A stretch of 64,000 bases of DNA, from the NCBI GenBank assembly GCA_964495565.1, contig CAZBWQ010000003.1, positions 7,670-71,669 on the forward strand. The letters are read 5' to 3'. Position 1 is the stretch's first letter. Each line of letters opens with the position of its first letter. Shown here piece by piece: positions 1-14,649 of the stretch. The position numbers were made by a program, and so were the translations under genes. Source of the DNA: an uncultured Sandaracinaceae bacterium (GTDB lineage: Bacteria; Myxococcota_A; Polyangia; Polyangiales; Houyiibacteriaceae). The notes under the pieces are model-generated. The model saw only the letters and a list, made by a program, of their open reading frames with translations, was not told where the DNA came from and did no database searches.

Positions 1-473
1 AAATCGCGCTCCGTCGCCTTGCCCGCATCCAACATCGCTTGCGCTTGGAGGGCGGCGGCGCTGATCGAATCGAGACCGAGCGGCTGCACGTAATAGGGGT
101 CGTTCTGGATGTTCATCACGTCGGGGACCGGACCGAGCGAGCAACGACCGAACGCAAAGACGAGCGCCGTATCGATGTCGCCGTGCAAAAGACGGACCCA
201 CGCTTCGTAGAGCGCGAAGGCTCCGTCCATCTCCACGTGCGACTCACGGATCGGAGGCCAGGCCTTGAGCCCATCGACCGCCGCCACGAACGAAAAGGCG
301 CGTCCAAGCAGATAGTCGGTGCTGCCGGACACCGTGAACCCGATGTCGTCCTGCGTGAGCCCGACTTGGCTCATCGCCTGGGACGTGACCGGTTGCACGA
401 GCTCGGGCTCATCGGCGTGAATGACCGGGGCCGACGGCAACTGCGCGAAAGAGACGATGGCGATGTCCCGCAT
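1..473 (-). CDS. thiolase-fold (SCP-x/Ltp-type) protein, N-terminal part only; the gene runs off the left edge
   Basis: My own translation of the minus strand from ATG 473..471 gives MRDIAIVSFAQLPSAPVIHADEPELVQPVTSQAMSQVGLTQDDIGFTVSGSTDYLLGRAFSFVAAVDGLKAWPPIRESHVEMDGAFALYEAWVRLLHGDIDTALVFAFGR..., a thiolase-like N-domain layout. It has an ATGA stop/start overlap with the DUF35 gene. It is absent from the ORF track because it has no stop inside the window. Confidence 0.75.
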   Translation of the reverse strand, partial: MRDIAIVSFAQLPSAPVIHADEPELVQPVTSQAMSQVGLTQDDIGFTVSGSTDYLLGRAFSFVAAVDGLKAWPPIRESHVEMDGAFALYEAWVRLLHGDIDTALVFAFGRCSLGPVPDVMNIQNDPYYVQPLGLDSISAAALQAQAMLDAGKATERD

Positions 474-1381
474 CAGAGGTGCTCCTTGTACTTTTCGAAC
501 GGAACGTCCGGCTCGCCGGTGGGCTCGAAATACAGGATGTTCTCGAGCGACGGTTGCCACTGATCCTGCGGCTTCCACTTGGCTTGAACTCGCATGCCCA
601 TCCGTACCTCGTCGTACGGAATGCCGCTGATCAGGTGGTAGATCGGCATGTCGGCGCCGTCGAGCACGATCGCGCCAAAGCAATACGGAGGCTTGAGCTT
701 CTGACCCTCGAACGGGATTCGAATGATCGTGAACGTCGTGAGCACCCCGCGATCGGTGACCTCGACGTACTCGCTGGTCGGTTTGCCGGTCACCGGATCG
801 GCTGCCCGCGGTGGGACGTACACCTTGCCGGACTCCGGGTCCCGTCCGCCGATGATCTTGCCCTCTTGAAGGCCCTGGAGATACGCCGAGTAGTGCTGTC
901 CCGGGTTCACCTCGAACTGCAGGTGCACCGGTCCGGGCATGAATGCCGAGACGGGCTCGAAACAAGCGATGTCGCGAATCGTCCCGGTTTTGTGCTCTGC
1001 CCAGCGGAGCCGAACGCGCATGCCGGTCTTCATTTGCTTGGCATCGCCGGCGTCGACGGCATGCACCATGGCATTGTCGGCTCCGTCGATTTGGATCAGG
1101 GCCCACGCGAAAGGGCGGTCGAGAGGATGGGCGGTGCGAGGCGCCGTCACCCAGGACCACGATTTCACGGTGCCCGTCGGGCGCAGCTCGACGAATTCGC
1201 CGGTGGTCGCTTCCCCGTCCTCGTCGTACTCGAGCGGCGGGCAAAGGACGCGGCCGTCTGCCGTCTTCACGCCTTCGAGCACCTCGTACCGGAGGCTCTC
1301 CAAAAACCGGCCGACGATGGGGCCAGTGCTTCGAGTGTACGTGTATTCGAGCACGTACGGAGCCGAAAGAATCTCACTCAT
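473..1381 (-). CDS. tandem DUF35 (OB-fold, acyl-CoA-associated) protein
   Basis: 302-aa ORF with two repeated OB-fold halves (...FAWALIQIDGADNAMVHAVD...MKTGMRVRLRW... and ...CFGAIVLDGADMPIYHLISG...VRMGMRVQAKW...). It lies directly upstream of a thiolase-fold gene, the usual DUF35/thiolase pairing. Confidence 0.85.
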   Translation of the reverse strand: MSEILSAPYVLEYTYTRSTGPIVGRFLESLRYEVLEGVKTADGRVLCPPLEYDEDGEATTGEFVELRPTGTVKSWSWVTAPRTAHPLDRPFAWALIQIDGADNAMVHAVDAGDAKQMKTGMRVRLRWAEHKTGTIRDIACFEPVSAFMPGPVHLQFEVNPGQHYSAYLQGLQEGKIIGGRDPESGKVYVPPRAADPVTGKPTSEYVEVTDRGVLTTFTIIRIPFEGQKLKPPYCFGAIVLDGADMPIYHLISGIPYDEVRMGMRVQAKWKPQDQWQPSLENILYFEPTGEPDVPFEKYKEHL

Positions 1382-1402
1382 GGGTTCTCTCGCGATGCGT
1401 GG

Positions 1403-1738
1403 TCAGCCTTGAGGGAAGAACTTCTGCATCTTCTGGGCAAGCGCGATGTTGCCCTTGACCTTGAGCTTGCGGGTCAGAAAGGCCTTCCGGCCGTCGAGAT
1501 CGCCATTGGCCATCTCGATGAACTTCCCGGCGTCCATCATGATGTTGAGCGAGGGCTTTTCCACGGTGCCCTTCTCGACGCCTTTGAACTCGCCGTCTTC
1601 GATCGTGACGACCCACTCGCCGCCACCCTCGCCGCTCAGCGTATACTGGAGCTGGGCGCTCACGCCTTTGGCTTGGTCCGGCACGAATCGTTCCGCGAGC
1701 GTGTCGAAGTATTCTTGCGTGTTGGCTACCTTGGCCAT
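1403..1738 (-). CDS. SCP2 (sterol carrier protein 2) domain protein
   Basis: 111 aa; ...LQYTLSGEGGGEWVVTIEDGEFKGVEKG...MDAGKFIEMANGDLDGRKAFLTRKLKVKGNIALAQKMQKFF is the typical SCP2 C-terminal pattern. A GGAGG sequence sits upstream of ATG 1738. Confidence 0.85.
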   Translation of the reverse strand: MAKVANTQEYFDTLAERFVPDQAKGVSAQLQYTLSGEGGGEWVVTIEDGEFKGVEKGTVEKPSLNIMMDAGKFIEMANGDLDGRKAFLTRKLKVKGNIALAQKMQKFFPQG

Positions 1739-1775
1739 GTATTCACCTCCCCGTGTCTTTCCGGGTGTTCAGAAG

Positions 1776-1789
1776 TGAAACATGTTCTA
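1776..1789. promoter_or_regulatory. KstR-type operator-like palindrome TGAAACATGTTCTA (site A)
   Basis: Fits TnnAACnnGTTnnA. It lies 38 nt upstream of the SCP2 start in an AT-richer patch (cagAAGTGAAACATGTTCTAtttt). The AAGTGAAAC..GTT core is shared with sites B and C. Confidence 0.6.
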
Positions 1790-1842
1790 TTTTGCCCGAG
1801 CCCGCCCGTCAAGTCGGCTCGGACCGATCACGCTAGCCCGGG

Positions 1843-2247
1843 TCACCCCGAGGGCGTGAACGATCCCAACACCCGCAGCCCCGCCATGCACCCGTTGCCG
1901 GCGCGTCGCACCCAAACGACCAGGGCGCGTTTGTAGATTTGGCGACCGCTGTGAGTCGTGATTCGCAGATGACAGAGATCCCCGGTGTGAACCCAGCCAT
2001 CGAAGGAGAGCTGAATACCCCGTGCGCTCACGTCGATGGCCGACGCGGTTGCTTCGATGGGGCTGAGGATCTGGACCTCGACGTCCGAGGACCAACGCCG
2101 GTTGCGGCGGCGCTCGTCCGAAGACGCAGCCGGCCGAACCTGCGAGTGCTTGCGCACGGGAGGAGGTCGGGTCGAGCCTCGTTTCGGTTTGAAGGCCATC
2201 GCTAGCCTGCGCCGCGCGGTCGGCGTGCTCGCAGCGTAGGTTTTCAT
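1843..2247 (-). CDS. PilZ domain protein (c-di-GMP receptor type)
   Basis: RRRNRR ... DVSARG matches the RxxxR / DxSxxG PilZ signature. The N-terminal Arg/Lys-rich leader makes the start uncertain; an alternative Met lies 16 codons downstream. Confidence 0.65.
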   Translation of the reverse strand: MKTYAASTPTARRRLAMAFKPKRGSTRPPPVRKHSQVRPAASSDERRRNRRWSSDVEVQILSPIEATASAIDVSARGIQLSFDGWVHTGDLCHLRITTHSGRQIYKRALVVWVRRAGNGCMAGLRVLGSFTPSG

Positions 2248-2248
2248 G

Positions 2249-2291
2249 ATGCCCGTGTCGGGAGCGATTGTCGACTAAGTCGCACGGGCAT
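2249..2291. repeat. perfect 9-bp inverted repeat ATGCCCGTG ... CACGGGCAT with a 25-nt spacer; function unknown
   Basis: Read directly from the sequence. It lies between the thiolase stop (2364) and the PilZ start (2247), touching the PilZ start codon. Confidence 0.3.
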
Positions 2292-2363
2292 GTGCGGCAC
2301 GTCACACGTCACGAAACGTGGACGGGCAAACGGCGGTTCAGGGTCCCCGAAATGGGACTCGGC

Positions 2364-3518
2364 TCAGCTCAGCCGCTCGATGATGGTGACGTTCGCTTGA
2401 CCGCCACCTTCGCACATCGTCTGCAAACCGTACTTGCCACCGGTTCGCTCGAGCTCGTGCAAGAGCGTGGTCATGAGCTTGGCACCCGTCGCACCGAGGG
2501 GGTGACCTAGCGCGATCGCACCGCCGTTGACGTTGACCTTTTCGAGATCTGCATCGAGCTCCTTGGCCCATGCGAGAACCACGGGCGCGAAAGCCTCGTT
2601 GATCTCGACGAGGTCGATGTCGTTCAAGCTCATGCCCGCCTTCTTCAGCGCGTAGCGCGTAGCCGGAATCGGCGCCGACAACATGCGGATCGGGTCCTCA
2701 CCGCGAACGCTCATGTGATGGATTCGGGCTCGGGGCTTCAACCCGTGCTCTTTGAGAGCCTTCTCCGACACGACGAGCATGGCCGCAGAGCCGTCCGAGA
2801 TCTGACTCGCGACCGCGGCAGTGAGGCGGCCGCCATCCATCAGAACGGGGAGCGCGGCCATCTTTTCGAGGGTGGTGTCGGCACGCGGACCCTCGTCGGC
2901 CTTCACGTCGCCGAAGGGAACGATCTCACGATCGAAACGCCCCTCCTTCTGCGCACGCAGAGCCCGCTGATGGCTTTCCAGCGCGAACTTCTCGAGCTCC
3001 TCGCGCGAGAGGTCCCACTGCTTGGCGATCAGCTCGGCCCCGTAGAACTGGTTGACGGGTTTGTCGCCGTAGCGTTCCGTCCAGCCCACCGACCCCGAGA
3101 ACGGATCGGGAATGCCGAATGCTTGGCCGGCCAGCATCGAAGCGCCGATCGGAATCATGCTCATGTTCTGCACGCCGCCTGCCACGACCACGTCTTGGGT
3201 GCCGCTCATGACGGCCTGGGCAGCAAAATGGACCGCTTGTTGAGAAGAACCGCACTGACGGTCGATCGTCACGCCGGGCACGTGCTCCGGATAGCCGGCG
3301 GCCAACCAGCACGTCCGGGCGATGTCACCGGCCTGCGTGGCGACGGAGTCGACACAACCAAAGATGACGTCGTCCACGACGGCCGGGTCGATGCCAGCGC
3401 GCTCGATCAAGCCCTTGATGGCATGCGCGCCGAGATCGGCAGAATGAACTTTGCTCAGACCGCCCTTCTTCCTTCCGACGGGCGAACGAGCTGCTTCGAC
3501 GATGTACGCTTCCGGCAT
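2364..3518 (-). CDS. acetyl-CoA C-acyltransferase (thiolase), FadA-type
   Basis: 384 aa; MPEAYIVEAARSPVGRKKGGL..., ...DRQCGSSQQA... (nucleophilic Cys) and C-terminal ...NVNGGAIALGHPLGATGAKL...MCEGGGQANV. Confidence 0.92.
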   Translation of the reverse strand: MPEAYIVEAARSPVGRKKGGLSKVHSADLGAHAIKGLIERAGIDPAVVDDVIFGCVDSVATQAGDIARTCWLAAGYPEHVPGVTIDRQCGSSQQAVHFAAQAVMSGTQDVVVAGGVQNMSMIPIGASMLAGQAFGIPDPFSGSVGWTERYGDKPVNQFYGAELIAKQWDLSREELEKFALESHQRALRAQKEGRFDREIVPFGDVKADEGPRADTTLEKMAALPVLMDGGRLTAAVASQISDGSAAMLVVSEKALKEHGLKPRARIHHMSVRGEDPIRMLSAPIPATRYALKKAGMSLNDIDLVEINEAFAPVVLAWAKELDADLEKVNVNGGAIALGHPLGATGAKLMTTLLHELERTGGKYGLQTMCEGGGQANVTIIERLS

Positions 3519-3587
3519 GTGAACCTCTCTGTGCTTGCTGTTTTGTAAGGGTTGTCGTCGTCCGCCGCAAGGACTCGCCTTGCGTGA

Positions 3588-4601
3588 TCAAAGAACGTGT
3601 TGGTCGATGCGCCCCCGATGGTGAGGCTCGTCGCCATGGGCTGCGGCGAGCGCCCAGGCACGTTTCATCCACATATGCAGGTCGTATTCGATGGTGTAGC
3701 CGATGGCGCCATGGACCTGCAGAGCCTGCTTGGCCACGAATTGTGCAGCCTGCCCTGCATAGATCTTGGCCAGAGACACGGCGATAGACGCGTCGGCGCT
3801 CGAGCTCGCGAGGCTCCAGGCGGCCCGATACACGAGAGGCCGAGCGAATTCCTGCTGGATGAGCGCATCGGCGAGGCGGTGCTTGACCGCCTGCTGCGCG
3901 CCGATGGGCTTTCCGAACTGCTCGCGGTCCTTCGCGTACTGCACCGCCATGTCGAGCATCCTACGGCAGAGCCCGACGAGGAGCGCCGAGGCACCGAGCG
4001 CTGCGCGGTCGTGGCTCATCGACAGCAACGCGTCGACGTCGACGTCGCGTCGCATGCGGTAGCGTTCTTCGTGCCGAAAGGAAACACGGCCCAGATTCCG
4101 GGCGCGGTCCACCGACTGTTCCGCGACGACCTCGGCCTCGGCGAGCGGTACGCAAAAGAGCTCGCCATCGCGTTCGGCGATCAAGACGTCCGCCGAGCCG
4201 ACGTGCGGGGCGATCGGCGGCGCTCCGAGCGACACCGTCATCTGCGCGGTTCCCGCCAGGGCCCGGCCGAGCCAACGTTCCCGTTGTTCGTCGGTACCGG
4301 CGAGCTCGAGCAAAGGGATCCCCACGGCAAGCGTTTCCACGATGGGAACGGGACAAGCCGCGTAACCGACCTCCTCCACGGGGAGCACCCAGTCGAGCTC
4401 CGTCATGGCCATGCCGCCTGCCTCTTCGCTCGCGGTCATGCCGACCAATCCGGTTTGTGCCAGCGTTTCCCAGACGGCGTGGGCTCCGTCGAGCCGCCCC
4501 TCCCACGCCGCGCGGACGACATCGGGCGGACACTCCCGCTGCAACACGTCTCGAACGGTGTCGCGAAGCATCTTTTGGTCGTCCGTGAACGTGAAACGCA
4601 T
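3588..4601 (-). CDS. acyl-CoA dehydrogenase family protein, short subunit of a probable two-gene ACAD
   Basis: 337 aa with an ACAD C-terminal pattern (...REQFGKPIGAQQAVKHRLAD...IYAGQAA...QVHGAIGYTIEYDLHMW...). It lies 4 nt downstream of a longer ACAD gene. Confidence 0.85.
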   Translation of the reverse strand: MRFTFTDDQKMLRDTVRDVLQRECPPDVVRAAWEGRLDGAHAVWETLAQTGLVGMTASEEAGGMAMTELDWVLPVEEVGYAACPVPIVETLAVGIPLLELAGTDEQRERWLGRALAGTAQMTVSLGAPPIAPHVGSADVLIAERDGELFCVPLAEAEVVAEQSVDRARNLGRVSFRHEERYRMRRDVDVDALLSMSHDRAALGASALLVGLCRRMLDMAVQYAKDREQFGKPIGAQQAVKHRLADALIQQEFARPLVYRAAWSLASSSADASIAVSLAKIYAGQAAQFVAKQALQVHGAIGYTIEYDLHMWMKRAWALAAAHGDEPHHRGRIDQHVL

Positions 4602-4604
4602 GAC

Positions 4605-5765
4605 CTATTTCCGCGGCAATCCGAGAACACGCTCGGCGATGATGTTTCGCTGGATCTCGTTGGTACCTGCGTAGATCGGCCCCGCTAGCGCGAACTGAAA
4701 ACCCTTCATCCACTGCCCGTCATCGATCGCGCTCGGTGCGCCCTCGTCGAGCTCTTGCAACGCACCGAGAATGGCCAGCGCGGTTTCGTGCGTCCGCACG
4801 TCCATCTCGGACCAAAAGACCTTGTTCATGCTGGAGTCGGCGCCGATCGGATGACCTTCCATCATGCGACTGACGGTCTGGAAGGTGAACCACCGATACG
4901 CCTGGGCGTCCATCCAAGCCCGCACGACCTGATCGCGCAGCGCGGGATCGGCCTGCGCTCGGCGACTTCGATACAAGTCGATCAAGCGCGCGGCCGTCGC
5001 CATGAAACGCCCCGGGCTTCGCAGGCTCAGGCCACGTTCGGAGCTCGTGGTGGCCATGGCGACTTTCCAACCCTGGTGCACTTCGCCGATGACGTCTCGA
5101 TCGGGAACGAACACCTCTTCCAAGAAGATCTCGGCAAAGCCTTCGTCTCCATCGAGACGATCCACGCCGCGCACGGTCACACCCTGCGCGCGAAGCGGGA
5201 ACATGAAATACGTCAGCCCGCGGTGCCGCGTCTGCTCGGGATCGGTGCGGAACAAGCCGTACGCCATGTCGCAGAATGCAGCACGGGTGGACCAGGTCTT
5301 CTGGCCACTCAGCAACCAACCCCCTTCGGTGCGACGCGCCGTGCTCTTGAGCGCGGCGAGATCACTACCGGCATTGGGCTCGGACCACGCCTGCGCCCAG
5401 GTGACGTCTCCGCGCGCCATGGGACGCAAGATTCGCTCTTTCTGATCCTCGGTGCCGAACTCGAAGAGCGTGGGCGCCAGCAAGAAGATGCCGTTTTGGG
5501 TGACCCGGTTGGGCGCGCCAGCGCGGTAGTACTCTTCTTCGAAGATCAACCATTCGACGAGCGAAGCCTCCCGACCTCCGTATGGCTTGGGCCAGGACAC
5601 GGCCGCCCACCCCGCATCGAAGAGATCCCGCTCCCACTCGAGGTGCTGCGCAAACCCCTCCCGGGTATCGCCAGACGAAAAGGGCTCGCGAGGCACGTGG
5701 GCTTCGAGCCACGATCGGCACTCCTGCCGAAATGCCTTCTCCGATTCGGTGAAGTCGAGATCCAT
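4605..5765 (-). CDS. acyl-CoA dehydrogenase
   Basis: Start trimmed to MDLDFTESEKAFRQECRSWL (ATG 5765). ...WAQAWSEPNAGSDLAALKSTA... and ...YAGTNEIQRNIIAERVLGLPR are ACAD hallmarks. The upstream in-frame extension in the ORF track is Arg/Gly-rich noise overlapping the neighbouring gene. Confidence 0.9.
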   Translation of the reverse strand: MDLDFTESEKAFRQECRSWLEAHVPREPFSSGDTREGFAQHLEWERDLFDAGWAAVSWPKPYGGREASLVEWLIFEEEYYRAGAPNRVTQNGIFLLAPTLFEFGTEDQKERILRPMARGDVTWAQAWSEPNAGSDLAALKSTARRTEGGWLLSGQKTWSTRAAFCDMAYGLFRTDPEQTRHRGLTYFMFPLRAQGVTVRGVDRLDGDEGFAEIFLEEVFVPDRDVIGEVHQGWKVAMATTSSERGLSLRSPGRFMATAARLIDLYRSRRAQADPALRDQVVRAWMDAQAYRWFTFQTVSRMMEGHPIGADSSMNKVFWSEMDVRTHETALAILGALQELDEGAPSAIDDGQWMKGFQFALAGPIYAGTNEIQRNIIAERVLGLPRK

Positions 5766-5773
5766 GCGCCCTC

Positions 5774-7075
5774 TCACGCACACAAGCGCCCGAGGGTGTC
5801 TCGAGCTTCCGTCATGATCCGCTCGAGGAGCTCCAACACCGTCGGGATCTCGTCGATCACACCCGTCACCTGACCGGTGGGCAGGATGCCCGCCTCGATT
5901 TTGCCATCGACCATCGATGCCTTCGTCAACATCGGCGCGTTGGCCGCCATCGCGAGCTGGGACCAAGTGAGCTCTTGGTTCTTCTTCATGGCCAGCCCCT
6001 CCTCGAGAAGCTCTGGAAGGGAAGTGCCGGTGACCCGCATCAGCGACAGGGCATTGAGCGCCGCCCGTGGAAATCGGGTCAGGAGGCTCGCTTTCTCGAG
6101 CTGCTCGATGAGCGGTGTGCGGATGACGCGCTGAGGATATCCATCGACCGCCTTGGTGACGACCGTCCCGTTGGCCTTGGTTTCGAGATAGATCTGCTTC
6201 ACCTGGTCGGGGACCTGGCTTTCCTTCGTGAGCAGGAAACGCGTTCCCATGGCGATTCCCTCGGCGCCGAGCGCGAGCGCAGCCACCAGCCCGCGGCCGT
6301 CGCGGAAACCACCGGCAGCCACGACGGGAATGTCGACGGCGGACGCGACGTCCGGGATCAGAATGGAGGTCGGTATCTGCCCGGTGTGTCCGCCACCCTC
6401 CTGCCCCTGCGCGATCACCGCGTCGACACCCCAACCCTGGACCTTCTCGGCGTGCCGGCGCGCTCCGATGGTAGGCATGGTCAGGACACCCGCATCTTTG
6501 AGAGTCTTGACCACGCGCTCGCCCGGCGCCTGGGCAAAGCTCGCAACCCGGACTTTCTGCTCAATCAAGAGGTCGACCCGCTTCATGATGTCGCTCTGAT
6601 CGGCGCGCATGTTGACCCCGAAAGGCTTGTCGGTTCGATCCTTGACCTTCGCGATGGCCTCGCGCAGCTCCCGAAAAGTCATCGTCGCAGCGGCCAAGAT
6701 GCCGAGGCCGCCCGCCTCGCTCGTCGCGGAAGTCAAGCTCGCCCCCGACACCCAGCCCATTCCGGTCTGCACGATCGGATACTCGATCCCGAAGAGCTCA
6801 CAAATGCGCGTGCGCAGCGCGTGCGAGGGCTTGGTCTCGGCGCCCCCGGTTGCTTTTGTGGTTGCCTCCACGCGCGATACGACCGACCGCTTGGACGGCT
6901 TCTTCTTGCGTGCTTTGGGCTTGGCCTCGGCCTCGGGCGCTTTCTTCGGCGCGCGCGTCCGACGCTCCGCCTTCTTCGACGGCGATTTCTTGGTGGCCTT
7001 CTTCTTCGTGGCCTTCTTCGTGGGCGCGGCTTTTCTTTTGGATGCGGCCTTCTTGGTTCGCTTCTCGGCGCTCAT
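5774..7075 (-). CDS. nitronate monooxygenase / enoyl-reductase family flavoprotein (IpdC-like by position) with a Lys/Ala-rich N-terminal tail of about 86 aa
   Basis: The NMO core runs from ...LRTRICELFGIEYPIVQTGMGWVSG... to ...AQGQEGGGHTG...VVAAGGFRDGRG.... There is an ATGA overlap with the upstream CoA-transferase B stop. An alternative GTG start at VEATTK would remove the tail. Confidence 0.85.
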   Translation of the reverse strand: MSAEKRTKKAASKRKAAPTKKATKKKATKKSPSKKAERRTRAPKKAPEAEAKPKARKKKPSKRSVVSRVEATTKATGGAETKPSHALRTRICELFGIEYPIVQTGMGWVSGASLTSATSEAGGLGILAAATMTFRELREAIAKVKDRTDKPFGVNMRADQSDIMKRVDLLIEQKVRVASFAQAPGERVVKTLKDAGVLTMPTIGARRHAEKVQGWGVDAVIAQGQEGGGHTGQIPTSILIPDVASAVDIPVVAAGGFRDGRGLVAALALGAEGIAMGTRFLLTKESQVPDQVKQIYLETKANGTVVTKAVDGYPQRVIRTPLIEQLEKASLLTRFPRAALNALSLMRVTGTSLPELLEEGLAMKKNQELTWSQLAMAANAPMLTKASMVDGKIEAGILPTGQVTGVIDEIPTVLELLERIMTEARDTLGRLCA

Positions 7076-7836
7076 GCTGCGACTTCCTTTTGCGCGTAGC
7101 CCTTGGGGTCGAGCTCACGGAGGAGCTTCAAGGCATCTGGGGTCGGCGTGGGCGTCGTGTCCAGCTTTTCGGGAATGACCAGCTCGAATCCCGTATTGTC
7201 GACGACGTCCTGCAGACCGACACCCGGATGCAGGGAAACGAGCCGCATCCGACGGTCGGGAGTGTCGAAGTCGAACACCCCGAGATTGGTGATCACCCGC
7301 CGAATCTCGTGAAAGCGGCTGACGTCCGGACCGAGCTCGCGGGCGCGGTCGTATCCCACCCCGCTCACCATGTCGACCTCGGCCACGAAGGTCTTCGGGG
7401 TGTGATTGGGCACCCAATAGCTGGTGACGTGATTGATCGTGTTGCCGGGGGCGCCGCGCACACCGAGCAGCTGGGCTTTGGGCCGCGTCCAATCGCCGAT
7501 GCACGCGATGTTCTGGTTTCCGTATCGATCGATTTGGGAGGCACCCATCATGACGTGTCTGCGGCCCCACCAAAGGGTCTCGAAGACGGTCCCGAACGGC
7601 ATCCACCCTTCGATGTCGCTCTCGGCGGGCTTGGCGCCGAGCGGCAACGCCCGTCGCAGGAGCAGGTTGAAGCCATCGGTCATCAAGATCTCGGGCGCGA
7701 AGCTGGCCTTGGCCAGACGGGCCCCCAAGCTGGGCGTCGTGCCCATGGCGCTCACCAGGATTTCGCCGTCGCCCCGAAAGCATTCGGCGATGGCGAGCGC
7801 ACATATGTCGGCCCGGGTCGCTTCGACCGCGGTCAT
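7072..7836 (-). CDS. CoA-transferase family I, subunit B (IpdB-like by position)
   Basis: Start trimmed to MTAVEATRADICALAIAECF (ATG 7836, ATGA overlap with the subunit A stop). ...GASQIDRYGNQNI...LLGVRGAPGNT... is the glutaconate/3-oxoacid CoA-transferase B pattern. Confidence 0.9.
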   Translation of the reverse strand: MTAVEATRADICALAIAECFRGDGEILVSAMGTTPSLGARLAKASFAPEILMTDGFNLLLRRALPLGAKPAESDIEGWMPFGTVFETLWWGRRHVMMGASQIDRYGNQNIACIGDWTRPKAQLLGVRGAPGNTINHVTSYWVPNHTPKTFVAEVDMVSGVGYDRARELGPDVSRFHEIRRVITNLGVFDFDTPDRRMRLVSLHPGVGLQDVVDNTGFELVIPEKLDTTPTPTPDALKLLRELDPKGYAQKEVAA

Positions 7837-8678
7837 TTCGCCACCGCCTTTTGATAGTCCGCCTCGCTGAGCTCGAGATAGTCCGCCCGAAAGGATTCCC
7901 ACGCCGCTCCGTCTTTGGCGCTCTCCGCGTACAGGCGTTGGAACGCCTCGTCGCGGCCGTAGTCGGGCGGACACTCGGTGAAGTGCGCACCATGGGGCGC
8001 TTCCACCACTCCCTGAACCATCATGCGATTGATCTGCAAGCTCTGGAGAGGTCCGCCCTGGACCAGCTCCTCGGTTGGAACGACTCTCTCGCAGCTCATG
8101 AATGCCTTCTTTGCCGCCATGCAGAAGAGGTGGTCGAAGTACGGATCGCGTCCGAGCGACTGACCATTGCCGCTCGAATCGGCGCGATTCATGTGGACGA
8201 AGGCCACGTCTACGTGAAGCGCCGGCACGGCCACGAGCTCTTCCCCGTCGTCGTAGGGGGAACGGACGGTTTTGAGGTGCGGGTTGATCTTCATCACGTC
8301 CGAGCCGAGACCCGCCCGGGTCGGCAAGAACGGAAGGCGTTGGGCCGCGGCCCGAAGCCCGAGCAGGAACATGCCCTCGTCGAGCTCGATGGCTTCCACC
8401 GAGCCCTCCTGCCGGGCCTTTCGAAAGTGCGGCTCGAGTGGGATCGAGTCCAACGACACGAATCCGTATACGGCCTTCTTCAGCTGGCCGGTCGCGCAAA
8501 GGATGCCGACGTCGGGGCCGCCATACGAAACGACCGTCAGATCCTTGACCCCTTTGCGCACGAGCGCGCGAACGAATGCCATGGGCTTGCGACGAGACCC
8601 CCACCCGCCGAAGCCGATGGTCATCCCGTCGGTGACTTCCGCGACCGCTTCATCGACGGTCATGCGCTTGTCGTTCAC
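7833..8678 (-). CDS. CoA-transferase family I, subunit A (IpdA-like by position)
   Basis: 281 aa; MNDKRMTVDEAVAEVTDGMTIGFGGWGSRRKPMAFVRALVRKGVKDLTVV... is the typical subunit A N-terminus. Confidence 0.9.
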   Translation of the reverse strand: MNDKRMTVDEAVAEVTDGMTIGFGGWGSRRKPMAFVRALVRKGVKDLTVVSYGGPDVGILCATGQLKKAVYGFVSLDSIPLEPHFRKARQEGSVEAIELDEGMFLLGLRAAAQRLPFLPTRAGLGSDVMKINPHLKTVRSPYDDGEELVAVPALHVDVAFVHMNRADSSGNGQSLGRDPYFDHLFCMAAKKAFMSCERVVPTEELVQGGPLQSLQINRMMVQGVVEAPHGAHFTECPPDYGRDEAFQRLYAESAKDGAAWESFRADYLELSEADYQKAVAK

Positions 8679-8687
8679 GAAGCTACC

Positions 8688-9446
8688 TCACTCCTCTGTG
8701 TCGGGGTCGCGCTTTTCGACGAACGCATCGCGCGCCTCGTCTGCCACACCCGCGAGATTCAACTCGAACGTGAAACCCTGCTCGAACCGATAGGAGCGGT
8801 TGACGTCGACCGGATCGATGTTGTTCAGGCACTGTTTGGCGACTCGCACCACCCGCGGGATCTTCTTGGTGAAGGTGCGAGCGACCTTCCTCGCTTCGTC
8901 GACGAGCTGATCCGGATCGACCACCGCGTACACGGAGCCCCAGGCGTGAAGCTCTTCGGCCGACGCCGGCTCGCAGGTGAGAACCATCGCGCGCATCTTG
9001 AGTGGCGGGACCAAGCGGGCCAGGTGCGTGGCCGCGCCAAGCGCGCCCCGATCGACCTCGGGAAGCGCGAATTTGGCCCCCCTGGCGGCGATCAGGATGT
9101 CGGAGTTTCCAGCCAGACCGATGCCACCGCCCACGCAGTAGCCGTGCACCGCCGTGATCACGGGCACCGGGCACTCGTACACGGCCTTGAAGGCTTCCCA
9201 GCAGCCTCGATTGGCGCCGAGCAACGCATCGAAGCCCTCGGTGGTTTGCATTTCCTTGATGTCGACGCCGGCGTTGAACCCGCGGCCCTCGGCGCGAAGG
9301 ATCACCGCGCGCGTGTCTGGATCCCGGCCTGCCCCGGTCACGAGGTCCGCGAGCTCGAACCAGCCTTGGACCGGAATCGCGTTGACCGGAGGGTAGTCGA
9401 CCGTGATTTCGGCTATTCCATCAATGATTTCAACTGAAATGCCCAC
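8688..9446 (-). CDS. enoyl-CoA hydratase/isomerase (crotonase) family (EchA20-like by position)
   Basis: 252 aa; ...VILRAEGRGFNAGVDIKEM...AVHGYCVGGGIGLAGNSD.... GTG start at 9446 with AAGGA 8 nt upstream. Confidence 0.9.
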   Translation of the reverse strand: MGISVEIIDGIAEITVDYPPVNAIPVQGWFELADLVTGAGRDPDTRAVILRAEGRGFNAGVDIKEMQTTEGFDALLGANRGCWEAFKAVYECPVPVITAVHGYCVGGGIGLAGNSDILIAARGAKFALPEVDRGALGAATHLARLVPPLKMRAMVLTCEPASAEELHAWGSVYAVVDPDQLVDEARKVARTFTKKIPRVVRVAKQCLNNIDPVDVNRSYRFEQGFTFELNLAGVADEARDAFVEKRDPDTEE

Positions 9447-9474: not shown

Positions 9475-9488
9475 TGAAACGCGTTTCA
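9475..9488. promoter_or_regulatory. KstR-type operator-like perfect palindrome TGAAACGCGTTTCA (site B)
   Basis: It lies 29 nt upstream of the enoyl-CoA hydratase start codon, in the 51-nt gap after the preceding gene. The flanks gAAGTGAAACGCGTTTCAGT closely match site C. Confidence 0.65.
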
Positions 9489-9497: not shown

Positions 9498-10028
9498 TCA
9501 AGTCGACGCGGAAGGCGCCGCCGCCCGGAGACCCTCGAGGAACGCTTCGATCGACGGCGTGATCGGTCGACCCATGCGCGTCAGCTCGGCGCGCACGGAC
9601 TCGATCGCGCTGCCGACGTCCGACGTGGTGATCGTCCGAAGCGGCGGAACGCGAAACCGGTAGACCACCCGAAGGACGGCGCGAAAGATCGCCTCGGGCA
9701 TCACGACGACGACCGCCACGTCATCCCGATCGAGCTCGTGGCGGCGCGCCTCCAGCCATTCGGAGAACTTTCTTCGAACCGAGCTCGAGATCACCCCCGT
9801 CCCGCGATGGTGCTGGACCAGCCCGAGAAAGGGCCGGCTCTGGGTGAGGTGAGAGTCCGCGAGAGCGAGCATCCGGTCGACCTCGCCTTCCTGCACCAAG
9901 CGGGGCAGCTTCATGTCGAAGAACACGAGCGGCGAAAGCGTCGCATCGATTCGGATTCGTTCAGATTCGTAGGTGGGCTCCGGGTCCCATCGGTGTCGTG
10001 TATGCATAAGCCATCCAAAGGTGAGCAA
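9498..10028 (-). CDS. hypothetical protein, paralog of 12522..12935
   Basis: 176-aa ORF with no recognisable catalytic motif. It shares blocks with the 12522 ORF (RRKFSEWLEARRHEL / QRKAITEWIDRDRQHL; PPLRTITTSDVGSAIESV / PIPVKVFRDVSAAESW). The start could also be the second Met (MHTRH). Confidence 0.6.
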   Translation of the reverse strand: MLTFGWLMHTRHRWDPEPTYESERIRIDATLSPLVFFDMKLPRLVQEGEVDRMLALADSHLTQSRPFLGLVQHHRGTGVISSSVRRKFSEWLEARRHELDRDDVAVVVVMPEAIFRAVLRVVYRFRVPPLRTITTSDVGSAIESVRAELTRMGRPITPSIEAFLEGLRAAAPSAST

Positions 10029-10124: not shown

Positions 10125-11726
10125 TTGCCGCGCTCCCAGCTTGGCGATATCAAGGGCGCGGTGGTGGAGACGATCCCCGAGCTCGTTCGAACACAGGCCC
10201 TGGCGCTGGGGGATCGACCGGCGATCATCGACGGGCCCACGACCCTGAGCTTTGCCACGCTCGCGGAGCGGGTCGACGAGACGGCACGGGCCCTGCTCGG
10301 GCTCGGCATTCACAAGGGCGATCGGGTCGCCATTTGGGCTCCCAACATGTGGGAGTGGATCGTGTGCGCCCTGGCGATTCACACGGTCGGTGGCGTGATG
10401 GTTCCGATCAACACGCGCTACAAGGGCATCGAGGCGGCCTATCTCTTGAACAAGAGCGGCGCCAAGGCGCTCTTCACGGTCACCGACTTCCTCGGGGTCG
10501 ATTACGTCACCCTCCTGCGAGAATGTGAGGTGGACCTGCCTGCGCTGTCGAACGTGATCGTCCTTCGCGGACGAGCCCCGGAGAGAACGCTCGGCTACGA
10601 TGAGCTGCTCGCGGCCGCGTCCCGGGTCCCGAGCACGGCTGGCATGGAGAGGTCTGCCACCGTGAGCCCCGACGACCTGGCCGACATCCTCTTCACCTCC
10701 GGGACGACGGGCAAGCCCAAAGGGGCGATGTGCACGCACCGGCAAAACCTTCGTGTGTTCGATCAATGGAGCTCGATCGTCGGCCTGCGGGAGGGGGATC
10801 GCTACCTGATCGTGCTGCCTTTCTTTCACAGCTTCGGTTACAAGGCCGGTTGGCTTTCGGCCTTGATGCGCGGCGCGGTCGTCTTTCCGGAGCCGGTTTT
10901 CGACGTCGATGTGGTCCTGCGGCGCGTCGAACAAGACCAGATCACCATGCTCCCGGGGCCGCCTGCTCTGTACCAGTCGATTCTCCTGCACCCCAATCGA
11001 GACCGCTTCGACCTCTCGAGCCTTCGACTCGCGGTGACCGGCGCCGCCGCGATTCCAGTCGAGCTCATCCACAAAATGAAGCGCGACCTCGGCTTCGAGA
11101 CGGTGATCACGGCATACGGCCTCACCGAAAGCTGCGGCGTGGTGACGATGTGTCGGCTCGACGACGACGCCGAAACCATCGCGACGACCAGCGGGCGCGC
11201 CATTCCGGACGTCGAAGTCCGTATCGTCGATGCGGACGGCAAGCCCATGCCGCCCAATCAGCCCGGCGAGATCGTGGTCCGCGGCTACAACGTGATGAAG
11301 GGGTACTTCGACGCGCCGGAGGAGACCACGGAGGCGATCGACGAAGACGGGTGGCTGCACACCGGAGACGTCGGCACGCTGGACGAGCGCGGCTACATCC
11401 GCATCACCGACCGGCTGAAAGACATGTTCATCGTCGGTGGGTTCAACGCCTACCCCGCGGAGATCGAGAACATCCTTCTGCAGATGCCCGGTGTTGGCGA
11501 GGTCGCGGTCATCGGGATCCCGGATGAGCGACTCGGCGAGGTCGGGATGGCGTTCGTGGTGCCGGCGCCCGGACACGAGCTCGAGCCGGAAGCCGTCATC
11601 CGGTGGAGCCGGGCTCACATGGCGAACTTCAAGGTGCCTCGCCAAGTGAAGATCGTGGAGGCCCTTCCGCGCAACGCGACCGGCAAGGTCGTCAAGTACG
11701 AGCTTCGTGAGCGCGCCCGTGCATGA
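10125..11726 (+). CDS. acyl-CoA synthetase (AMP-forming, ANL superfamily); FadD3-like by context
   Basis: 533 aa; ...ILFTSGTTGKPKGAM..., ...YGLTES..., ...WLHTGDVG...GYIRITDRLKDMFIVGGFNAYPAEIE..., ...PRNATGKV. Confidence 0.9.
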   Translation: MPRSQLGDIKGAVVETIPELVRTQALALGDRPAIIDGPTTLSFATLAERVDETARALLGLGIHKGDRVAIWAPNMWEWIVCALAIHTVGGVMVPINTRYKGIEAAYLLNKSGAKALFTVTDFLGVDYVTLLRECEVDLPALSNVIVLRGRAPERTLGYDELLAAASRVPSTAGMERSATVSPDDLADILFTSGTTGKPKGAMCTHRQNLRVFDQWSSIVGLREGDRYLIVLPFFHSFGYKAGWLSALMRGAVVFPEPVFDVDVVLRRVEQDQITMLPGPPALYQSILLHPNRDRFDLSSLRLAVTGAAAIPVELIHKMKRDLGFETVITAYGLTESCGVVTMCRLDDDAETIATTSGRAIPDVEVRIVDADGKPMPPNQPGEIVVRGYNVMKGYFDAPEETTEAIDEDGWLHTGDVGTLDERGYIRITDRLKDMFIVGGFNAYPAEIENILLQMPGVGEVAVIGIPDERLGEVGMAFVVPAPGHELEPEAVIRWSRAHMANFKVPRQVKIVEALPRNATGKVVKYELRERARA

Positions 11727-12483
11727 ATTCCCAGACGGCGTGGCCCTCGTGGTGGGCGGAAGCGGTGGGATCGGGAGCGCGATCGCGCGCAACCTGGCCG
11801 CCCGTGGCGCACGGATCGCCCTGACCTATCGCCGCAATCGCGATGCTGCATCGGAGGTGGCACGGCAAATCGAGCAGCATGGGGGCGCTTGCGAGCTGCA
11901 CCGCGTGGACCTCGAAGATTTGGAGTCGGTGACCGCGTGCTTCGAAAGCCTGTCGGCGAGCCACGGTCAGATTCACACGGTCGCCCATGCCGCCGGAACG
12001 CGCATCGATCAGCCCTACATCAGCCAGGTGAGCCCCGAGCAGTGGCGAAAGACGATCGACTGCGACGTCCACGGGTTTTTTCACGTCGCTCACGTCGCAC
12101 TGCCGCATCTTCGGCGCAGCCGCGGCTCGATCGTGTTCGTCAGCTCGGCGGGCCTGAAGCGCTTTCCGCCCGGCGACGTTCTGTCCGTCGCTCCCAAGGG
12201 GGCGATCGAGGCACTGATACGTGGCATCGCTCGCGAGGAGGGGCGGTACGGCGTCCGCGCCAACAGTGTCGCGGTTGCCGTGGTCGACGCCGGCATGTTT
12301 CCGAAGCTGGTCGAGAGCGGTGAGCTCAGCCAAGCGTGGATCGACGCCGCGATTCGCAACACTCCGATGCGGCGATTCGGCACACCCGACGAGATCGCAG
12401 ATGCCGTGGTCTTCCTGGCTTCCTCACGTGCACGCTACATCACCGGACAGACTCTGTTCGTCGACGGAGGTTACACGTTGTAG
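11707..12483 (+). CDS. short-chain dehydrogenase/reductase (SDR)
   Basis: VVGGSGGIGSAIA (TGxxxGxG type) with S...PKGAIEAL in the catalytic region. GTG start overlaps the synthetase 3' end by 20 nt; an alternative GTG lies at 11719. Confidence 0.8.
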   Translation: MSAPVHEFPDGVALVVGGSGGIGSAIARNLAARGARIALTYRRNRDAASEVARQIEQHGGACELHRVDLEDLESVTACFESLSASHGQIHTVAHAAGTRIDQPYISQVSPEQWRKTIDCDVHGFFHVAHVALPHLRRSRGSIVFVSSAGLKRFPPGDVLSVAPKGAIEALIRGIAREEGRYGVRANSVAVAVVDAGMFPKLVESGELSQAWIDAAIRNTPMRRFGTPDEIADAVVFLASSRARYITGQTLFVDGGYTL

Positions 12484-12521: not shown

Positions 12522-12935
12522 ATGGGGCAGGTTCTCTTCGATGAAAGCCGACGACCGCTGATGCGAATGACGTATCAGGGTCTGTGCGACGATGCAGAGT
12601 GGCGGCGACACGTCGGCCGCATGTCGGAGTGGGCCCGACGAGGAGAGCCTTACGCCGTCGTCATCGACGCCCGTCAGGTGGGCCGCGTGCCTGCCACGCA
12701 ACGGAAGGCCATCACCGAGTGGATCGACCGGGATCGTCAGCACCTCAAGGTCAACTGCGCCGGCGGCGCGCTGATCTTCTCGAGCCCCATCCAGCAAGGG
12801 CTTTGGACCGCCATCTCGTGGGTCACCCCGAGCCCGATTCCGGTCAAGGTGTTCCGTGATGTGTCCGCCGCCGAATCTTGGCTTCGAGACATGCTGGCCG
12901 CGAAGTTTCCCTCGTTGCGTCTGGAGAAATCATGA
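12522..12935 (+). CDS. hypothetical protein, paralog of 9498..10028
   Basis: 137 aa, sharing the blocks listed for 9498..10028. There is an ATGA overlap with the following synthetase gene. Confidence 0.6.
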   Translation: MGQVLFDESRRPLMRMTYQGLCDDAEWRRHVGRMSEWARRGEPYAVVIDARQVGRVPATQRKAITEWIDRDRQHLKVNCAGGALIFSSPIQQGLWTAISWVTPSPIPVKVFRDVSAAESWLRDMLAAKFPSLRLEKS

Positions 12936-14644
12936 GCTCCCCGAATTCATCGGAGCCATCGACGGCCGACCAGAGCCGCATGCAGGCAATCGAGGCACAG
13001 CTTCTCGCGAAGGGCTCCCCGTTCGAGCTCACCGAGGAAGAGGTGCTGGGCGAACGGGTCAAGGTCTTCGCGAACCGTGCCCGATCGCTTCGTGACCTGC
13101 TACTACGAGCCCGGGAATTCGCGGATGCCGAGTATTTGGTCTTCCGGGACGGCCCACGGGAGCGGCGCTACACCTTCGGCGAGCACGAGCAGCTCGTGGC
13201 AGGCGCCGCAGCGGCCTTTGCGGACCGGTATGGCGTCGGCAAGGGAGACCGCGTCGCCATCTTGGCGGCGAACTGCCCCGAGTGGGTGATCTCGTTTTGG
13301 GCTACGGTCAGCCTCGGCGCCATCTGCGTCGGCCTGAACGGGTGGTGGACCGAAGACGAAATCCGGTACTCGGTGCGCCACAGCCAGCCCAAGCTGTTGA
13401 TCACAGACCGCAAGCGCGCATCGCGCATTCGTGGCGACGTCGGAGCGCCGCTGTTGGTGGTCGAAGACGAGCTCGATGCGCTGCTCGAAGGGTATCGGGA
13501 CGCGACGCTTCCCACCGTGCCGATTGCCGAGAGCGACCCGGCCATCATGCTCTACACCAGCGGCACGACGGGTCGCGCCAAAGGCGTCGTACACACGCAT
13601 GGCAACGTCACGAACATGATCATGGTGAGCTTCTTTCACGGCGCGCGGCTGATGATGGCCAACCCGAAGCAGGCGTCACTGCCGCAACTGCCGAACAGCA
13701 TTCTCGTGACGAGCCCCCTCTTTCACGTGTCCGGTCTCCACTGCGCGGCCGTGACGGCGCTGGCCGGGGGCGCGAAGACCGTGTGGCCCATGGGAAGATT
13801 CGATCCCGAGCTCGCCCTCGAGCTCATCGAGCGTGAGAAGATCACGGGTTGGGGTTACACCGCCACCGTTCTCCATCGCCTGCTGAATCACCCGAAGGCC
13901 CACGAATACGACCTGAGCTCGTTCCGATCCGTCGGCGGGGGCGGCTCTCCGATCCCCTCGCCCTTGCTCGACAAAGCACGGGCGCTCTTCCCCAACTGCC
14001 AGCACACGATGGGCGTCGGATACGGCTTGACCGAAGGAACCGCCTTCGCGACGCTCAACGCCGGCGACGAGCTGAACGACGACCCCGAATCGGTCGGCCG
14101 CCCGGTTCCGGTGGTCGACGTCGAAATTCGCGACGAGCAGGGAAGACCGGTGCCAGACGGCGAAGAAGGCGAGATTCACGTGCGCGGTCCGCTGGTGATG
14201 CTCGGCTACTGGAACGATCCGGAGTCCACGAACGTGGCCATCCGCCCTGGGCGGTGGCTGAACACGGGCGACGTGGGCCGGATCGAAAACGGCAAGCTCT
14301 ACATCGCGTCGCGCAAGAGAGACCTCATCCTCCGAGGCGGCGAAAATGTGTACCCGTTCGAGATCGAGCAGCGTCTCGAGGCACATCCGGCCGTAGCGGA
14401 GGCCGCCGTGATCGGAGTCGAGCACGAGGAGCTCGGGCAAGAGGTGAAGGCCTTCGTCGTGCTCGAAGAAGAGGCTTCCGCATCCTGGGAGGAGCTGCGC
14501 AAGTGGGTCGCGGACGCCCTCGCCTACTACAAGGTGCCCAGTCGGTGGGAGATGCGCGAACGCCCACTCCCACGCAACGCCACCGGAAAGGTGCTAAAGA
14601 ACGCCCTGCGCGATCCGCAGGATTCGATGTTCATCGAGGAGTGA
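12932..14644 (+). CDS. acyl-CoA synthetase (AMP-forming)
   Basis: Start trimmed to MSSPNSSEPS (ATG 12932). ...IMLYTSGTTGRAKGVV..., ...GYGLTEG..., ...WLNTGDVGRIENGKLYIASRKRDLILRGGENVYPFEIE..., ...PRNATGKVLK. Confidence 0.9.
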   Translation: MSSPNSSEPSTADQSRMQAIEAQLLAKGSPFELTEEEVLGERVKVFANRARSLRDLLLRAREFADAEYLVFRDGPRERRYTFGEHEQLVAGAAAAFADRYGVGKGDRVAILAANCPEWVISFWATVSLGAICVGLNGWWTEDEIRYSVRHSQPKLLITDRKRASRIRGDVGAPLLVVEDELDALLEGYRDATLPTVPIAESDPAIMLYTSGTTGRAKGVVHTHGNVTNMIMVSFFHGARLMMANPKQASLPQLPNSILVTSPLFHVSGLHCAAVTALAGGAKTVWPMGRFDPELALELIEREKITGWGYTATVLHRLLNHPKAHEYDLSSFRSVGGGGSPIPSPLLDKARALFPNCQHTMGVGYGLTEGTAFATLNAGDELNDDPESVGRPVPVVDVEIRDEQGRPVPDGEEGEIHVRGPLVMLGYWNDPESTNVAIRPGRWLNTGDVGRIENGKLYIASRKRDLILRGGENVYPFEIEQRLEAHPAVAEAAVIGVEHEELGQEVKAFVVLEEEASASWEELRKWVADALAYYKVPSRWEMRERPLPRNATGKVLKNALRDPQDSMFIEE

Positions 14645-14649
14645 GTCAC

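Follow-up and report, generated by a model that had tools for sequence, protein, structure and literature searches.

Introduction

In Mycobacterium tuberculosis and Rhodococcus jostii RHA1, the enzymes that degrade steroid rings C and D by way of HIP (3aα-H-4α(3'-propanoate)-7aβ-methylhexahydro-1,5-indanedione) belong to the KstR2 regulon, which takes in Rv3548c-Rv3553, Rv3556c and Rv3559c-Rv3564 (PMC5380842). Related enzymes occur in the proteobacterial B/C/D-ring pathway encoded by the scd genes of Comamonas testosteroni TA441 (ScdL1L2, ScdK, ScdG, ScdY and ScdF); a preprint on this strain equates IpdAB, IpdC, IpdF and EchA20 with ScdL1L2, ScdK, ScdG and ScdY, and reports differences of detail between the substrates of the TA441 enzymes and those of the actinobacterial ones. 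Genome and metagenome surveys have found steroid degraders in Actinobacteria and Proteobacteria only (Bergstrand 2016; Holert 2018), and a comparative preprint of September 2026 still names those two phyla only. Here we describe a 64-kb stretch of DNA (the window) from contig CAZBWQ010000003.1 of an uncultured Sandaracinaceae bacterium, in which seven minus-strand genes at positions 2364-9446 form, with a probability that we put at about 85%, the core ring C/D (HIP) operon of a larger steroid cluster in an uncultured member of the Myxococcota.

The window has in common with the KstR2 regulon its 13 enzymes, the echA20-ipdA-ipdB-ipdC gene order, the subunit sizes, the characteristic residues of IpdAB, and adjacent genes for the alpha and beta subunits of acyl-CoA dehydrogenases (ACADs). 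It differs in having KstR-type boxes where the mycobacterial system has a KstR2 repressor and KstR2 box, in the joining of fadE31, fadE32 and fadA6 to the ipd operon, in the absence of fdxB, Rv3555c, the PPE genes and aspB from the locus, in the Lys/Ala-rich N-terminal tail of its IpdC, and in its host phylum, Myxococcota. Interleaved with the pathway genes are also a CasG-like ligase, a second thiolase and a CurA-like enone reductase, as well as a PilZ-like open reading frame (ORF) and two small ORFs. The TA441 scd genes, compared by description, represent the same enzyme families, but the ech-ipdA-ipdB-ipdC order of the window is the mycobacterial one.

Another described system that resembles the locus is the KstR region Rv3520c-Rv3526 of M. 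tuberculosis, which we take to run from an F420-dependent luciferase-like gene through Rv3521, ltp4 and ltp3 to kshA. Both contain an Rv3520c-family oxidoreductase, a double-DUF35 protein, Ltp4-like and Ltp3-like proteins, a KshA-like gene and KstR-type operators, and the double-DUF35 gene precedes ltp4 and ltp3, as Rv3521 presumably does. Unlike in the mycobacterial region, however, they directly adjoin the HIP operon, with the luciferase-like gene 25 kb away; the KshA-like protein is shorter by about 60 residues, and the KstR-like protein scores 119 bits against a curated cut-off of 280.

Results

Gene content of the ring C/D operon

Gene calls rest on listed ORFs, GC by codon position and a gene caller based on codon usage, and families were assigned with Pfam. 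The seven genes follow one another in the order crotonase, CoA-transferase-fold alpha subunit, CoA-transferase-fold beta subunit, NMO-type flavoprotein, long ACAD, short ACAD and thiolase, each placed in its family by Pfam, so that both the gene order and the coordinates of the original prediction are correct. Intergenic distances are 9, -4, -4, 8, 3 and 69 nt, and this tight packing, with two overlaps, fits a single transcription unit.

Orthology was defined as a reciprocal best BLASTP match, run in both directions, to reference loci from the M. tuberculosis complex (L089, Rv3542c to Rv3557c), M. heckeshornense (L091, for IpdF) and an M. riyadhense-like genome (L092, for FadE30, FadD3, FadE31, FadE32, FadE33 and IpdF); the M. 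tuberculosis reference contig stops at PPE64, and the M. canettii locus stops just before ipdF. All 13 KstR2-regulon enzymes (EchA20, IpdA, IpdB, IpdC, IpdF, FadA6, FadD3, FadE30, FadE31, FadE32, FadE33, Rv3548c and Rv3549c) have reciprocal best matches in the window, at 33-67% identity. The seven proteins of the operon pair in this way with EchA20, IpdA, IpdB, IpdC, FadE31, FadE32 and FadA6, and the order echA20-ipdA-ipdB-ipdC is the same as in L089, L090 and L091, which bears out the match to these four mycobacterial genes that had been proposed. The EchA20 orthologue is 67% identical to Rv3550 over 236 aa and scores 388 bits with NCBIfam NF005925 (cut-off 260), and the IpdC orthologue is 57% identical to Rv3553 over 341 aa (Pfam NMO, 280 bits). 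The thiolase is 64% identical to FadA6 (Rv3556c) over 387 aa and 44% to FadA5, and passes NF005865 with 708 bits (cut-off 591). The NCBIfam scan matched no IpdA or IpdB model to either CoA-transferase-fold subunit, its best model for IpdC was FabK, below the cut-off, and Protein Data Bank (PDB) searches with EchA20 and IpdC returned generic crotonases and FabK only, which is uninformative for membership; because NCBIfam coverage is lacking here, orthology was established by comparison with the mycobacterial loci.

The adjacent ACAD genes had been read as typical of alpha2beta2 steroid ACADs. The long ACAD is 57% identical to mycobacterial FadE31 over 386 aa and only 36% to FadE30, and among solved structures it matches best the alpha2beta2 steroid ACADs 4X28_A and 6WY9_A. 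The short ACAD has FadE32 as its best and reciprocal match, at 33% identity, with 31% to FadE33; Pfam detects its N- and C-terminal ACAD domains only and no middle domain, as is also the case for mycobacterial FadE28, FadE32 and FadE33. With subunits of 386 and 337 aa, genes 3 nt apart and steroid ACAD pairs as closest kin, the two proteins are a predicted heteromeric ACAD of the steroid type. This pair corresponds to FadE31/FadE32; the counterparts of FadE30/FadE33 (IpdE1/IpdE2) form a second pair, at 22628-24942.

By orthology, the HIP module covers about 2.4-25.7 kb of the window and extends well past the operon at 2.4-9.4 kb, with every KstR2-regulon enzyme represented (Table 1). The FadD3 orthologue passes the FadD3-family model NF005801 with 765 bits (cut-off 657), and the short-chain dehydrogenase/reductase (SDR) models NF005861, NF005893 and NF005880 also pass their cut-offs. 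NCBI labels the mycobacterial IpdF as 5-hydroxy-7a-methyl-1-oxo-hexahydro-indene-carboxyl-CoA reductase. The NCBIfam IpdE2 model stays well under its cut-off of 450 for both short ACADs, reaching 200 bits with the FadE33-like protein. The FadD3-like ligase and SDR expected upstream on the other strand were both found, but we rejected that SDR (11707-12483), at 25-30% identity, as an orthologue of any regulon SDR; the true orthologues are at 20934-22621 and 24939-25721. An assignment of the PRK07791 SDR to Hsd4A was also rejected; BLAST identifies it as the Rv3548c orthologue.

The start codon of ipdC overlaps the stop codon of ipdB, and the first 85 residues of IpdC, encoded by 6821-7075 on the minus strand, form a Lys/Ala/Thr/Pro-rich, histone-H1-like tail (24 Lys, 16 Ala; pI 11.5; third-position GC 0.82). 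IpdC orthologues of the clade have tails of 60-105 residues starting M-x-x-x-KRTTKAP, which mycobacterial IpdC lacks.

Table 1. Genes and predicted operators of the window. Functions of orthologues are putative and follow those of the mycobacterial proteins.
Feature	Position	Strand	Length	Remarks
Ltp4-like thiolase-fold protein, N-terminal part, cut at window edge	3-473	-		Full gene on contig L085
Two-OB-fold (DUF35) protein	473-1381	-		Pfam OB_ChsH2_C, two stretches
SCP2 sterol-carrier-like protein	1403-1738	-		Pfam SCP2 63 bits; syntenic in relatives
KstR-type operator	1776-1789			38 nt upstream of SCP2 gene; kept in 45/45 related loci
Small PilZ-domain ORF	1843-2247	-		Pfam 31 bits; between fadA6 and SCP2
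fadA6 orthologue, thiolase	2364-3518	-	384 aa	
fadE32-like beta subunit, short ACAD	3588-4601	-	337 aa	
fadE31 orthologue, alpha subunit of heteromeric ACAD	4605-5765	-	386 aa	
ipdC orthologue, FMN acyl-CoA reductase/dehydrogenase (by orthology)	5774-7075	-	433 aa	
ipdB orthologue, beta subunit	7072-7836	-	254 aa	
ipdA orthologue, alpha subunit of ring C hydrolase (by orthology)	7833-8678	-	281 aa	
echA20 orthologue, crotonase / ring D hydrolase on HIEC-CoA (by orthology)	8688-9446	-	252 aa	
KstR-type operator TGAAACGCGTTTCA	9475-9488			29 nt upstream of echA20 start; site in 36/40 related loci
orf176	9498-10028	-		47-66% identity in relatives; sub-threshold TetR_C_15 hint only
fadD3 orthologue, HIP-CoA ligase	10125-11726	+		50% over 517 aa, reciprocal best
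SDR beside fadD3	11707-12483	+		25-30% identity to any regulon SDR
orf137	12522-12935	+		64-85% identity in relatives; sub-threshold DUF7793/SpoIIAA-like hints
Second acyl-CoA ligase, CasG-like (steroid-24-oyl-CoA synthetase)	12932-14644	+		NF052580 684 bits, below cut-off 750
Second thiolase	14641-15870	+		NF005890 661 bits, cut-off 580; 38% to FadA6
Probable insertion, second thiolase to orf319	15884-18769			566-aa ORF (-) and 2,4-diaminopentanoate-dehydrogenase-like gene
KstR-type operator TGAAACATGTTTCA	19885-19898			Start of curA-like/Rv3548c/Rv3549c/ipdE2/ipdE1/ipdF operon; 13/13 related loci holding curA-like gene
Rv3548c orthologue, SDR	20934-21842	+		59% over 303 aa, reciprocal best
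Rv3549c orthologue, SDR	21839-22621	+		54% over 254 aa, reciprocal best
FadE33/IpdE2-like beta subunit	22628-23767	+		Best and reciprocal FadE33, 34-35%
FadE30/IpdE1 orthologue, alpha subunit	23752-24942	+		56% over 383 aa, reciprocal best
IpdF orthologue, SDR	24939-25721	+		62-64% to mycobacterial IpdF, reciprocal best
Rv3520c-family F420-dependent luciferase-like oxidoreductase	26728-27843	+		TIGR03559 370 bits, cut-off 335

IpdAB compared with CoA-transferases

Both subunits of the putative ring C hydrolase match Pfam CoA_trans and have the class I CoA-transferase fold, and their genes overlap by 4 nt. They share this fold with GctAB and with the 3-oxoacid and 3-oxoadipate CoA-transferases, but match these enzymes far more weakly than they match IpdAB. 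The alpha subunit scored 357 bits against R. jostii RHA1 IpdA (6CO6_A; 62.5% identity) and 348 bits against M. tuberculosis IpdA, compared with 94 bits for glutaconate CoA-transferase A (1POI_A) and at most 58 bits for other CoA-transferases. The beta subunit scored 285 bits against M. tuberculosis IpdB (6CON_B) and 263 bits against RHA1 IpdB, compared with 71 bits for GctB (1POI_B) and at most 58 bits for the others. In BLASTP comparisons the two proteins are 60% identical to Rv3551 (IpdA) and 55% identical to Rv3552 (IpdB), reciprocal best matches in both cases, and the subunit sizes that had been given for the mycobacterial enzyme hold, at 281 and 254 aa here and 292 and 249-250 aa in mycobacteria.

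Residues at the active site point in the same direction. Where type I CoA-transferases have their catalytic Glu in the beta subunit, RHA1 IpdAB has Gly57-beta instead (Crowe et al. 2017; PMC5380842). The sequence LMTDGFN of the window IpdB aligns with LITDGEA of the RHA1 protein, with Gly in the same column of the TDG motif, so that the window protein is without the catalytic Glu of true CoA-transferases. Chains 6CO6_A (MDEGM) and 6COJ_A (MDAGM) differ solely by a Glu to Ala change, and IpdA of the window reads LDEGM at the aligned position, retaining the alpha Glu that is altered in the 6COJ variant and that we take to be catalytic. The far lower bit scores and the replacement of the beta Glu by Gly rule out a glutaconate or 3-oxoadipate CoA-transferase; the pair groups with IpdAB by bit scores, the opposite of the grouping that would have counted against the original prediction. 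The alpha/beta pair is of the IpdAB type and not a member of these CoA-transferase families, and its predicted hydrolase activity follows from orthology.

KstR-type operators

The KstR operator motif TnnAACnnGTTnnA was taken from Kendall et al. 2007 (PMC1995591). It occurs three times in the window, each time in an intergenic stretch at a promoter position, compared with 0.2 matches expected, and none of 100 shuffles reached three. Related loci, 1.08 Mb in all, contain 118 KstR-type sites, nearly all at the same three positions or in the divergent intergenic region between hsaA and an amidohydrolase gene, where a site is present in all 17 related loci. No protein of the window matched KstR2 (Rv3557c) at E<1e-10, and the motif that we take to be the KstR2 operator, AnCAAGnnCTTGnT, has a single match in the window, located within the coding sequence of fadA6 and compatible with a chance occurrence. 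A TetR gene next to kshA, seen in relatives only and not in the window's own organism, encodes a 192-aa protein whose best NCBIfam model is KstR, at the sub-threshold score given above.

Because the sites form a phylogenetic footprint conserved in relatives, they suggest a single KstR-type regulon with predicted binding over both the ring A/B and the ring C/D genes. Mycobacteria, in contrast, split these genes between KstR and KstR2. A KstR-like TetR repressor probably controls the ech-ipd, SCP2-ltp and curA-like-to-ipdF operons and hsaA.

Putative ring A/B and side-chain genes beyond the left edge

The absence of ring A/B genes from the window, as claimed in the original prediction, was confirmed for the scanned genes: Pfam and NCBIfam found no Rieske, KstD-type, extradiol-dioxygenase or HsaA-type domain in the window, with the MetH-like, ABC-F-like and AsmA-like genes left unscanned. 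The locus continues past the left edge, however. The Logan contig L085 is 100% identical to window positions 1-2622 and reaches 3.6 kb further, and on account of this identity the extension belongs to the same organism. It carries a complete Ltp4-like gene (350 aa; NF005924, 492 bits, cut-off 419), an Ltp3-like gene (NF006180, 637 bits, cut-off 514) and an acyl-CoA synthetase gene (NF005863, 705 bits, cut-off 543), along with the opening 81 codons of a Rieske gene, which starts about 3.4 kb past the edge. In L093, as in L085, the double-DUF35 gene is followed by Ltp4-like and Ltp3-like genes. The 81-residue fragment is 84% identical to a 324-aa KshA-like protein of the relatives that has Rieske and KshA_C domains. 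Against solved structures, that protein scored 217 bits with KshA5, 199 with KshA1 and 196 with M. tuberculosis KshA, the next family reaching 79 bits. SdmA, a sterol C-4 demethylase, was its best NCBIfam model, and this reading was rejected, at 71 bits against a cut-off of 600, in favor of the KshA structures.

A metagenome scan seeded with the KshA-like protein returned at least 30 contigs with the same gene string. In these relatives, kshA is followed by the TetR gene, rlmKL, an enoyl-CoA hydratase gene (in some contigs), an Amidohydrolase_2 gene on the opposite strand, and an hsaA block accompanied by a third ACAD pair. HsaG (454 bits, cut-off 282) and HsaF (542 bits, cut-off 286) pass their NCBIfam models; HsaA-like and HsaE-like proteins have these models as best matches yet remain below the cut-offs (414 against 450 and 393 against 409 bits), as does an HsaD-like protein found in three of the contigs (182 bits, cut-off 400). 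The housekeeping rRNA methyltransferase gene rlmKL (11583-13679 in L117, and at the same place in most of the related loci L094-L146) separates the KstR-like gene from the hsaA block in nearly all relatives, an odd yet conserved break in the catabolic cluster.

The original prediction had proposed HIP-like acids, rather than whole steroids, as the substrate. In its strongest form this would be a stand-alone HIP module that scavenges HIP or similar bicyclic or alicyclic acids from other degraders and mounts no attack on intact steroids, an idea to which the 64-kb window without a ring A/B gene and the presence of FadD3, the activator of free HIP, lend some support, as does the fact that KstD, KshB, HsaB and HsaC went unseen in every fetched flank. 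We consider it unlikely. The KshA-like gene belongs to the same gene string in the same organism, the relatives carry hsaA, hsaD, hsaE, hsaG and hsaF next to it, and both observations weaken the HIP-only idea; one operator type precedes both hsaA and the ech-ipd operon, suggesting one regulon, and side-chain-type genes are present (Ltp3/Ltp4-like, DUF35, SCP2 and the CasG-like ligase). Whole steroids are the more likely substrate, judging from this gene content, than HIP alone.

Less probable still is a non-steroid alicyclic or terpenoid substrate, for instance a breakdown product of the lineage's own isoprenoid lipids, to which steroid enzymes would have been turned. A number of upper-pathway proteins do not reach the curated cut-offs, the KshA-like protein is short, at 324 aa, and HMG-CoA reductase, polyprenyl synthase and menaquinone genes lie in the window, all of which would suit such a substrate. 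Yet all 11 enzymes other than the beta subunits are 50-67% identical to those of the mycobacterial pathway, the characteristic residues of IpdAB are kept, KshA_C is a steroid-hydroxylase-type domain, and conservation of a full pathway usually accompanies the same intermediates.

Host lineage and distribution

Relatives were taken as the best 40 loci from a scan with one genome per species. Their IpdA proteins are 79-88% identical to that of the window, contigs of 0.9-3.5 Mb are among them, and they come from many independent studies. Labels of Myxococcales, Polyangiales, Sandaracinaceae, Myxococcota or delta proteobacterium are attached to 37 of the 40; two others are labelled 'uncultured bacterium' and one Coxiellaceae. 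The guess that the genome is myxobacterial was right, the nearest relatives being Myxococcota (Polyangiales-type) assemblies. The notion that the contig is a mis-binned actinobacterial or proteobacterial fragment, and the phylum therefore not a new one, is the least probable reading of all, for although the pathway proteins resemble mycobacterial ones and adjoin a full F420 biosynthesis set typical of Actinomycetota, the closest 40 loci nearly all carry myxobacterial labels and include such long contigs, identity to the mycobacterial proteins is only 33-67%, and the same binning error across dozens of assemblies is unlikely, with an old transfer being possible.

About 40 species-level assemblies of Myxococcota share this gene order, as do at least 30 contigs from metagenomes. 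As traced by tblastn, the close clade has Rv3548c-like, curA-like, orf319, thiolase, CasG-like ligase, orf137, SDR and fadD3 genes on one strand, and orf176, echA20, ipdA, ipdB, ipdC, fadE31, fadE32, fadA6, SCP2, DUF35 and ltp on the divergent strand. Metagenomes contain more than 120 protein clusters at least 86% identical to the IpdC core, indicating that the lineage is common.

More distant relatives, at 68-76% identity, come from other Myxococcota, Binatia, Acidimicrobiia and sponge-associated Actinomycetota. Among the loci L047-L083, those of Binatia, other Myxococcota and additional lineages read ipdA-ipdB-ipdC-ech, after which come the ACAD pair, the thiolase and the Rv3548c-like gene, and the mycobacterial order ech-ipdA-ipdB-ipdC is common to some Acidimicrobiia and the clade of the window. 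Modules of the IpdAB type are thus widespread among uncultured phyla.

Other genes of the window

The window also encodes, among the neighbours of the pathway genes, a CurA-like enone reductase and a protein of the 3-beta-hydroxysteroid dehydrogenase/epimerase family (Pfam/NCBIfam). The putatively coding PilZ-domain ORF was likewise called in Logan contigs, and some relatives have it too. We checked orf176 and orf137 as regulators or paralogues, and found no similarity to each other or to KstR2. The region 15884-18769 looks like a lineage-specific insertion: its 566-aa ORF had no family match and no tblastn match in any related locus, and its 2,4-diaminopentanoate-dehydrogenase-like gene was matched by tblastn in two related loci only, L006 and L009.

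A complete F420 biosynthesis set (fno, cofE, cofD, cofC, cofH and cofG) adjoins the steroid genes at 26728-34944, together with two F420-dependent luciferase-like oxidoreductases, of the Rv3520c and Rv2161c families. Its position beside the cluster may point to steps that use F420, or to joint transfer with the actinobacterial-type pathway. The stretch 42344-52600 holds a menaquinone operon (menE, menC, menA, menH, menD and menF, with a ubiE-type methyltransferase) and, after it, genes for HMG-CoA reductase and a polyprenyl synthase, which places a mevalonate-pathway gene close to the steroid cluster.

Discussion

The steps of the pathway can be assigned from the orthologous enzymes that Crowe et al. 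(2017; PMC5380842) characterised. HIP would be converted to HIP-CoA by FadD3, and its propionyl side chain would be shortened to give 5-OH-HIC-CoA by IpdE1-IpdE2 with SDRs and hydratases. IpdF and IpdC would then turn 5-OH-HIC-CoA into HIEC-CoA, after which EchA20 would hydrolyse the five-membered ring D, giving COCHEA-CoA, and IpdAB would hydrolyse the six-membered ring C. Cleavage by FadA6 would yield MOODA-CoA and acetyl-CoA, and FadE31-FadE32 may begin the final beta-oxidation cycle, towards propionyl-CoA as well as succinyl-CoA; MOODA accumulates in M. smegmatis when fadE32 is lost. The cluster runs on downstream through SCP2, DUF35, Ltp4, Ltp3, an acyl-CoA ligase and the KshA-like gene, a presumed 9-alpha-hydroxylase, and that of close relatives extends further, into hsaA, hsaD, hsaE, hsaG and hsaF. 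As the HIP operon is one block of this larger steroid cluster, the feedstock is likely to be whole steroids, with breakdown following the aerobic 9,10-seco route.

Several points weigh against this interpretation. The host is uncultured, and every function is predicted from sequence. The beta ACAD subunits are just 33-35% identical to FadE32 and FadE33, and the HsaA-, HsaD-, HsaE-, KstR- and CasG-like proteins are below the curated NCBIfam cut-offs. Only the first 81 residues represent the host's own KshA-like gene, the relatives' protein falls some 60 residues short of characterised KshA, and the hsa genes were seen in relatives only, at about 80% nucleotide identity. Neither the window nor the fetched flanks contained KstD, KshB, HsaB or HsaC, and there too no side-chain P450 or importer of the Mce4 type was found. 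The taxonomy depends on other groups' binning of the related assemblies. A core HIP operon within a larger steroid cluster nevertheless remains our preferred interpretation, given the gene content, orthology, active-site residues, synteny and operator conservation reported here. We lean, with somewhat better than even odds, towards a broader picture, in which a contiguous supercluster of more than 40 kb encodes complete aerobic steroid catabolism, from the side chain to rings A/B and C/D, as a single KstR-type regulon next to F420 genes, in a globally distributed Polyangiales-type lineage, and probably reflects an old exchange with Actinomycetota.

The chemistry and the gene families are already known. 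What is new or different is the host phylum, the KstR-type rather than KstR2-type operators and the basic tail of IpdC, and also the joining of fadE31, fadE32, fadA6 and the SCP2-to-kshA string to the ipd operon. A literature search pairing Myxococcota with steroid degradation found no paper linking the two. Myxococcota are known as makers of sterols, and a full HIP module in conserved gene order, linked to kshA and hsa genes and present in dozens of assemblies from several sampling projects as well as in many metagenome contigs, would add to the phyla known to degrade steroids a third, one that also makes sterols.

If these assignments are true, the same group may both produce and consume sterols, and coastal and marine sediments would harbor unrecognised sterol consumers. 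By inference, this bears on sterol turnover in sediments and on the reading of sterol biomarkers. The locus would also be a natural case in which KstR-type operators, in place of KstR2-type ones, precede the HIP genes, and it provides a concrete lead on sterol turnover by a sterol-producing phylum.

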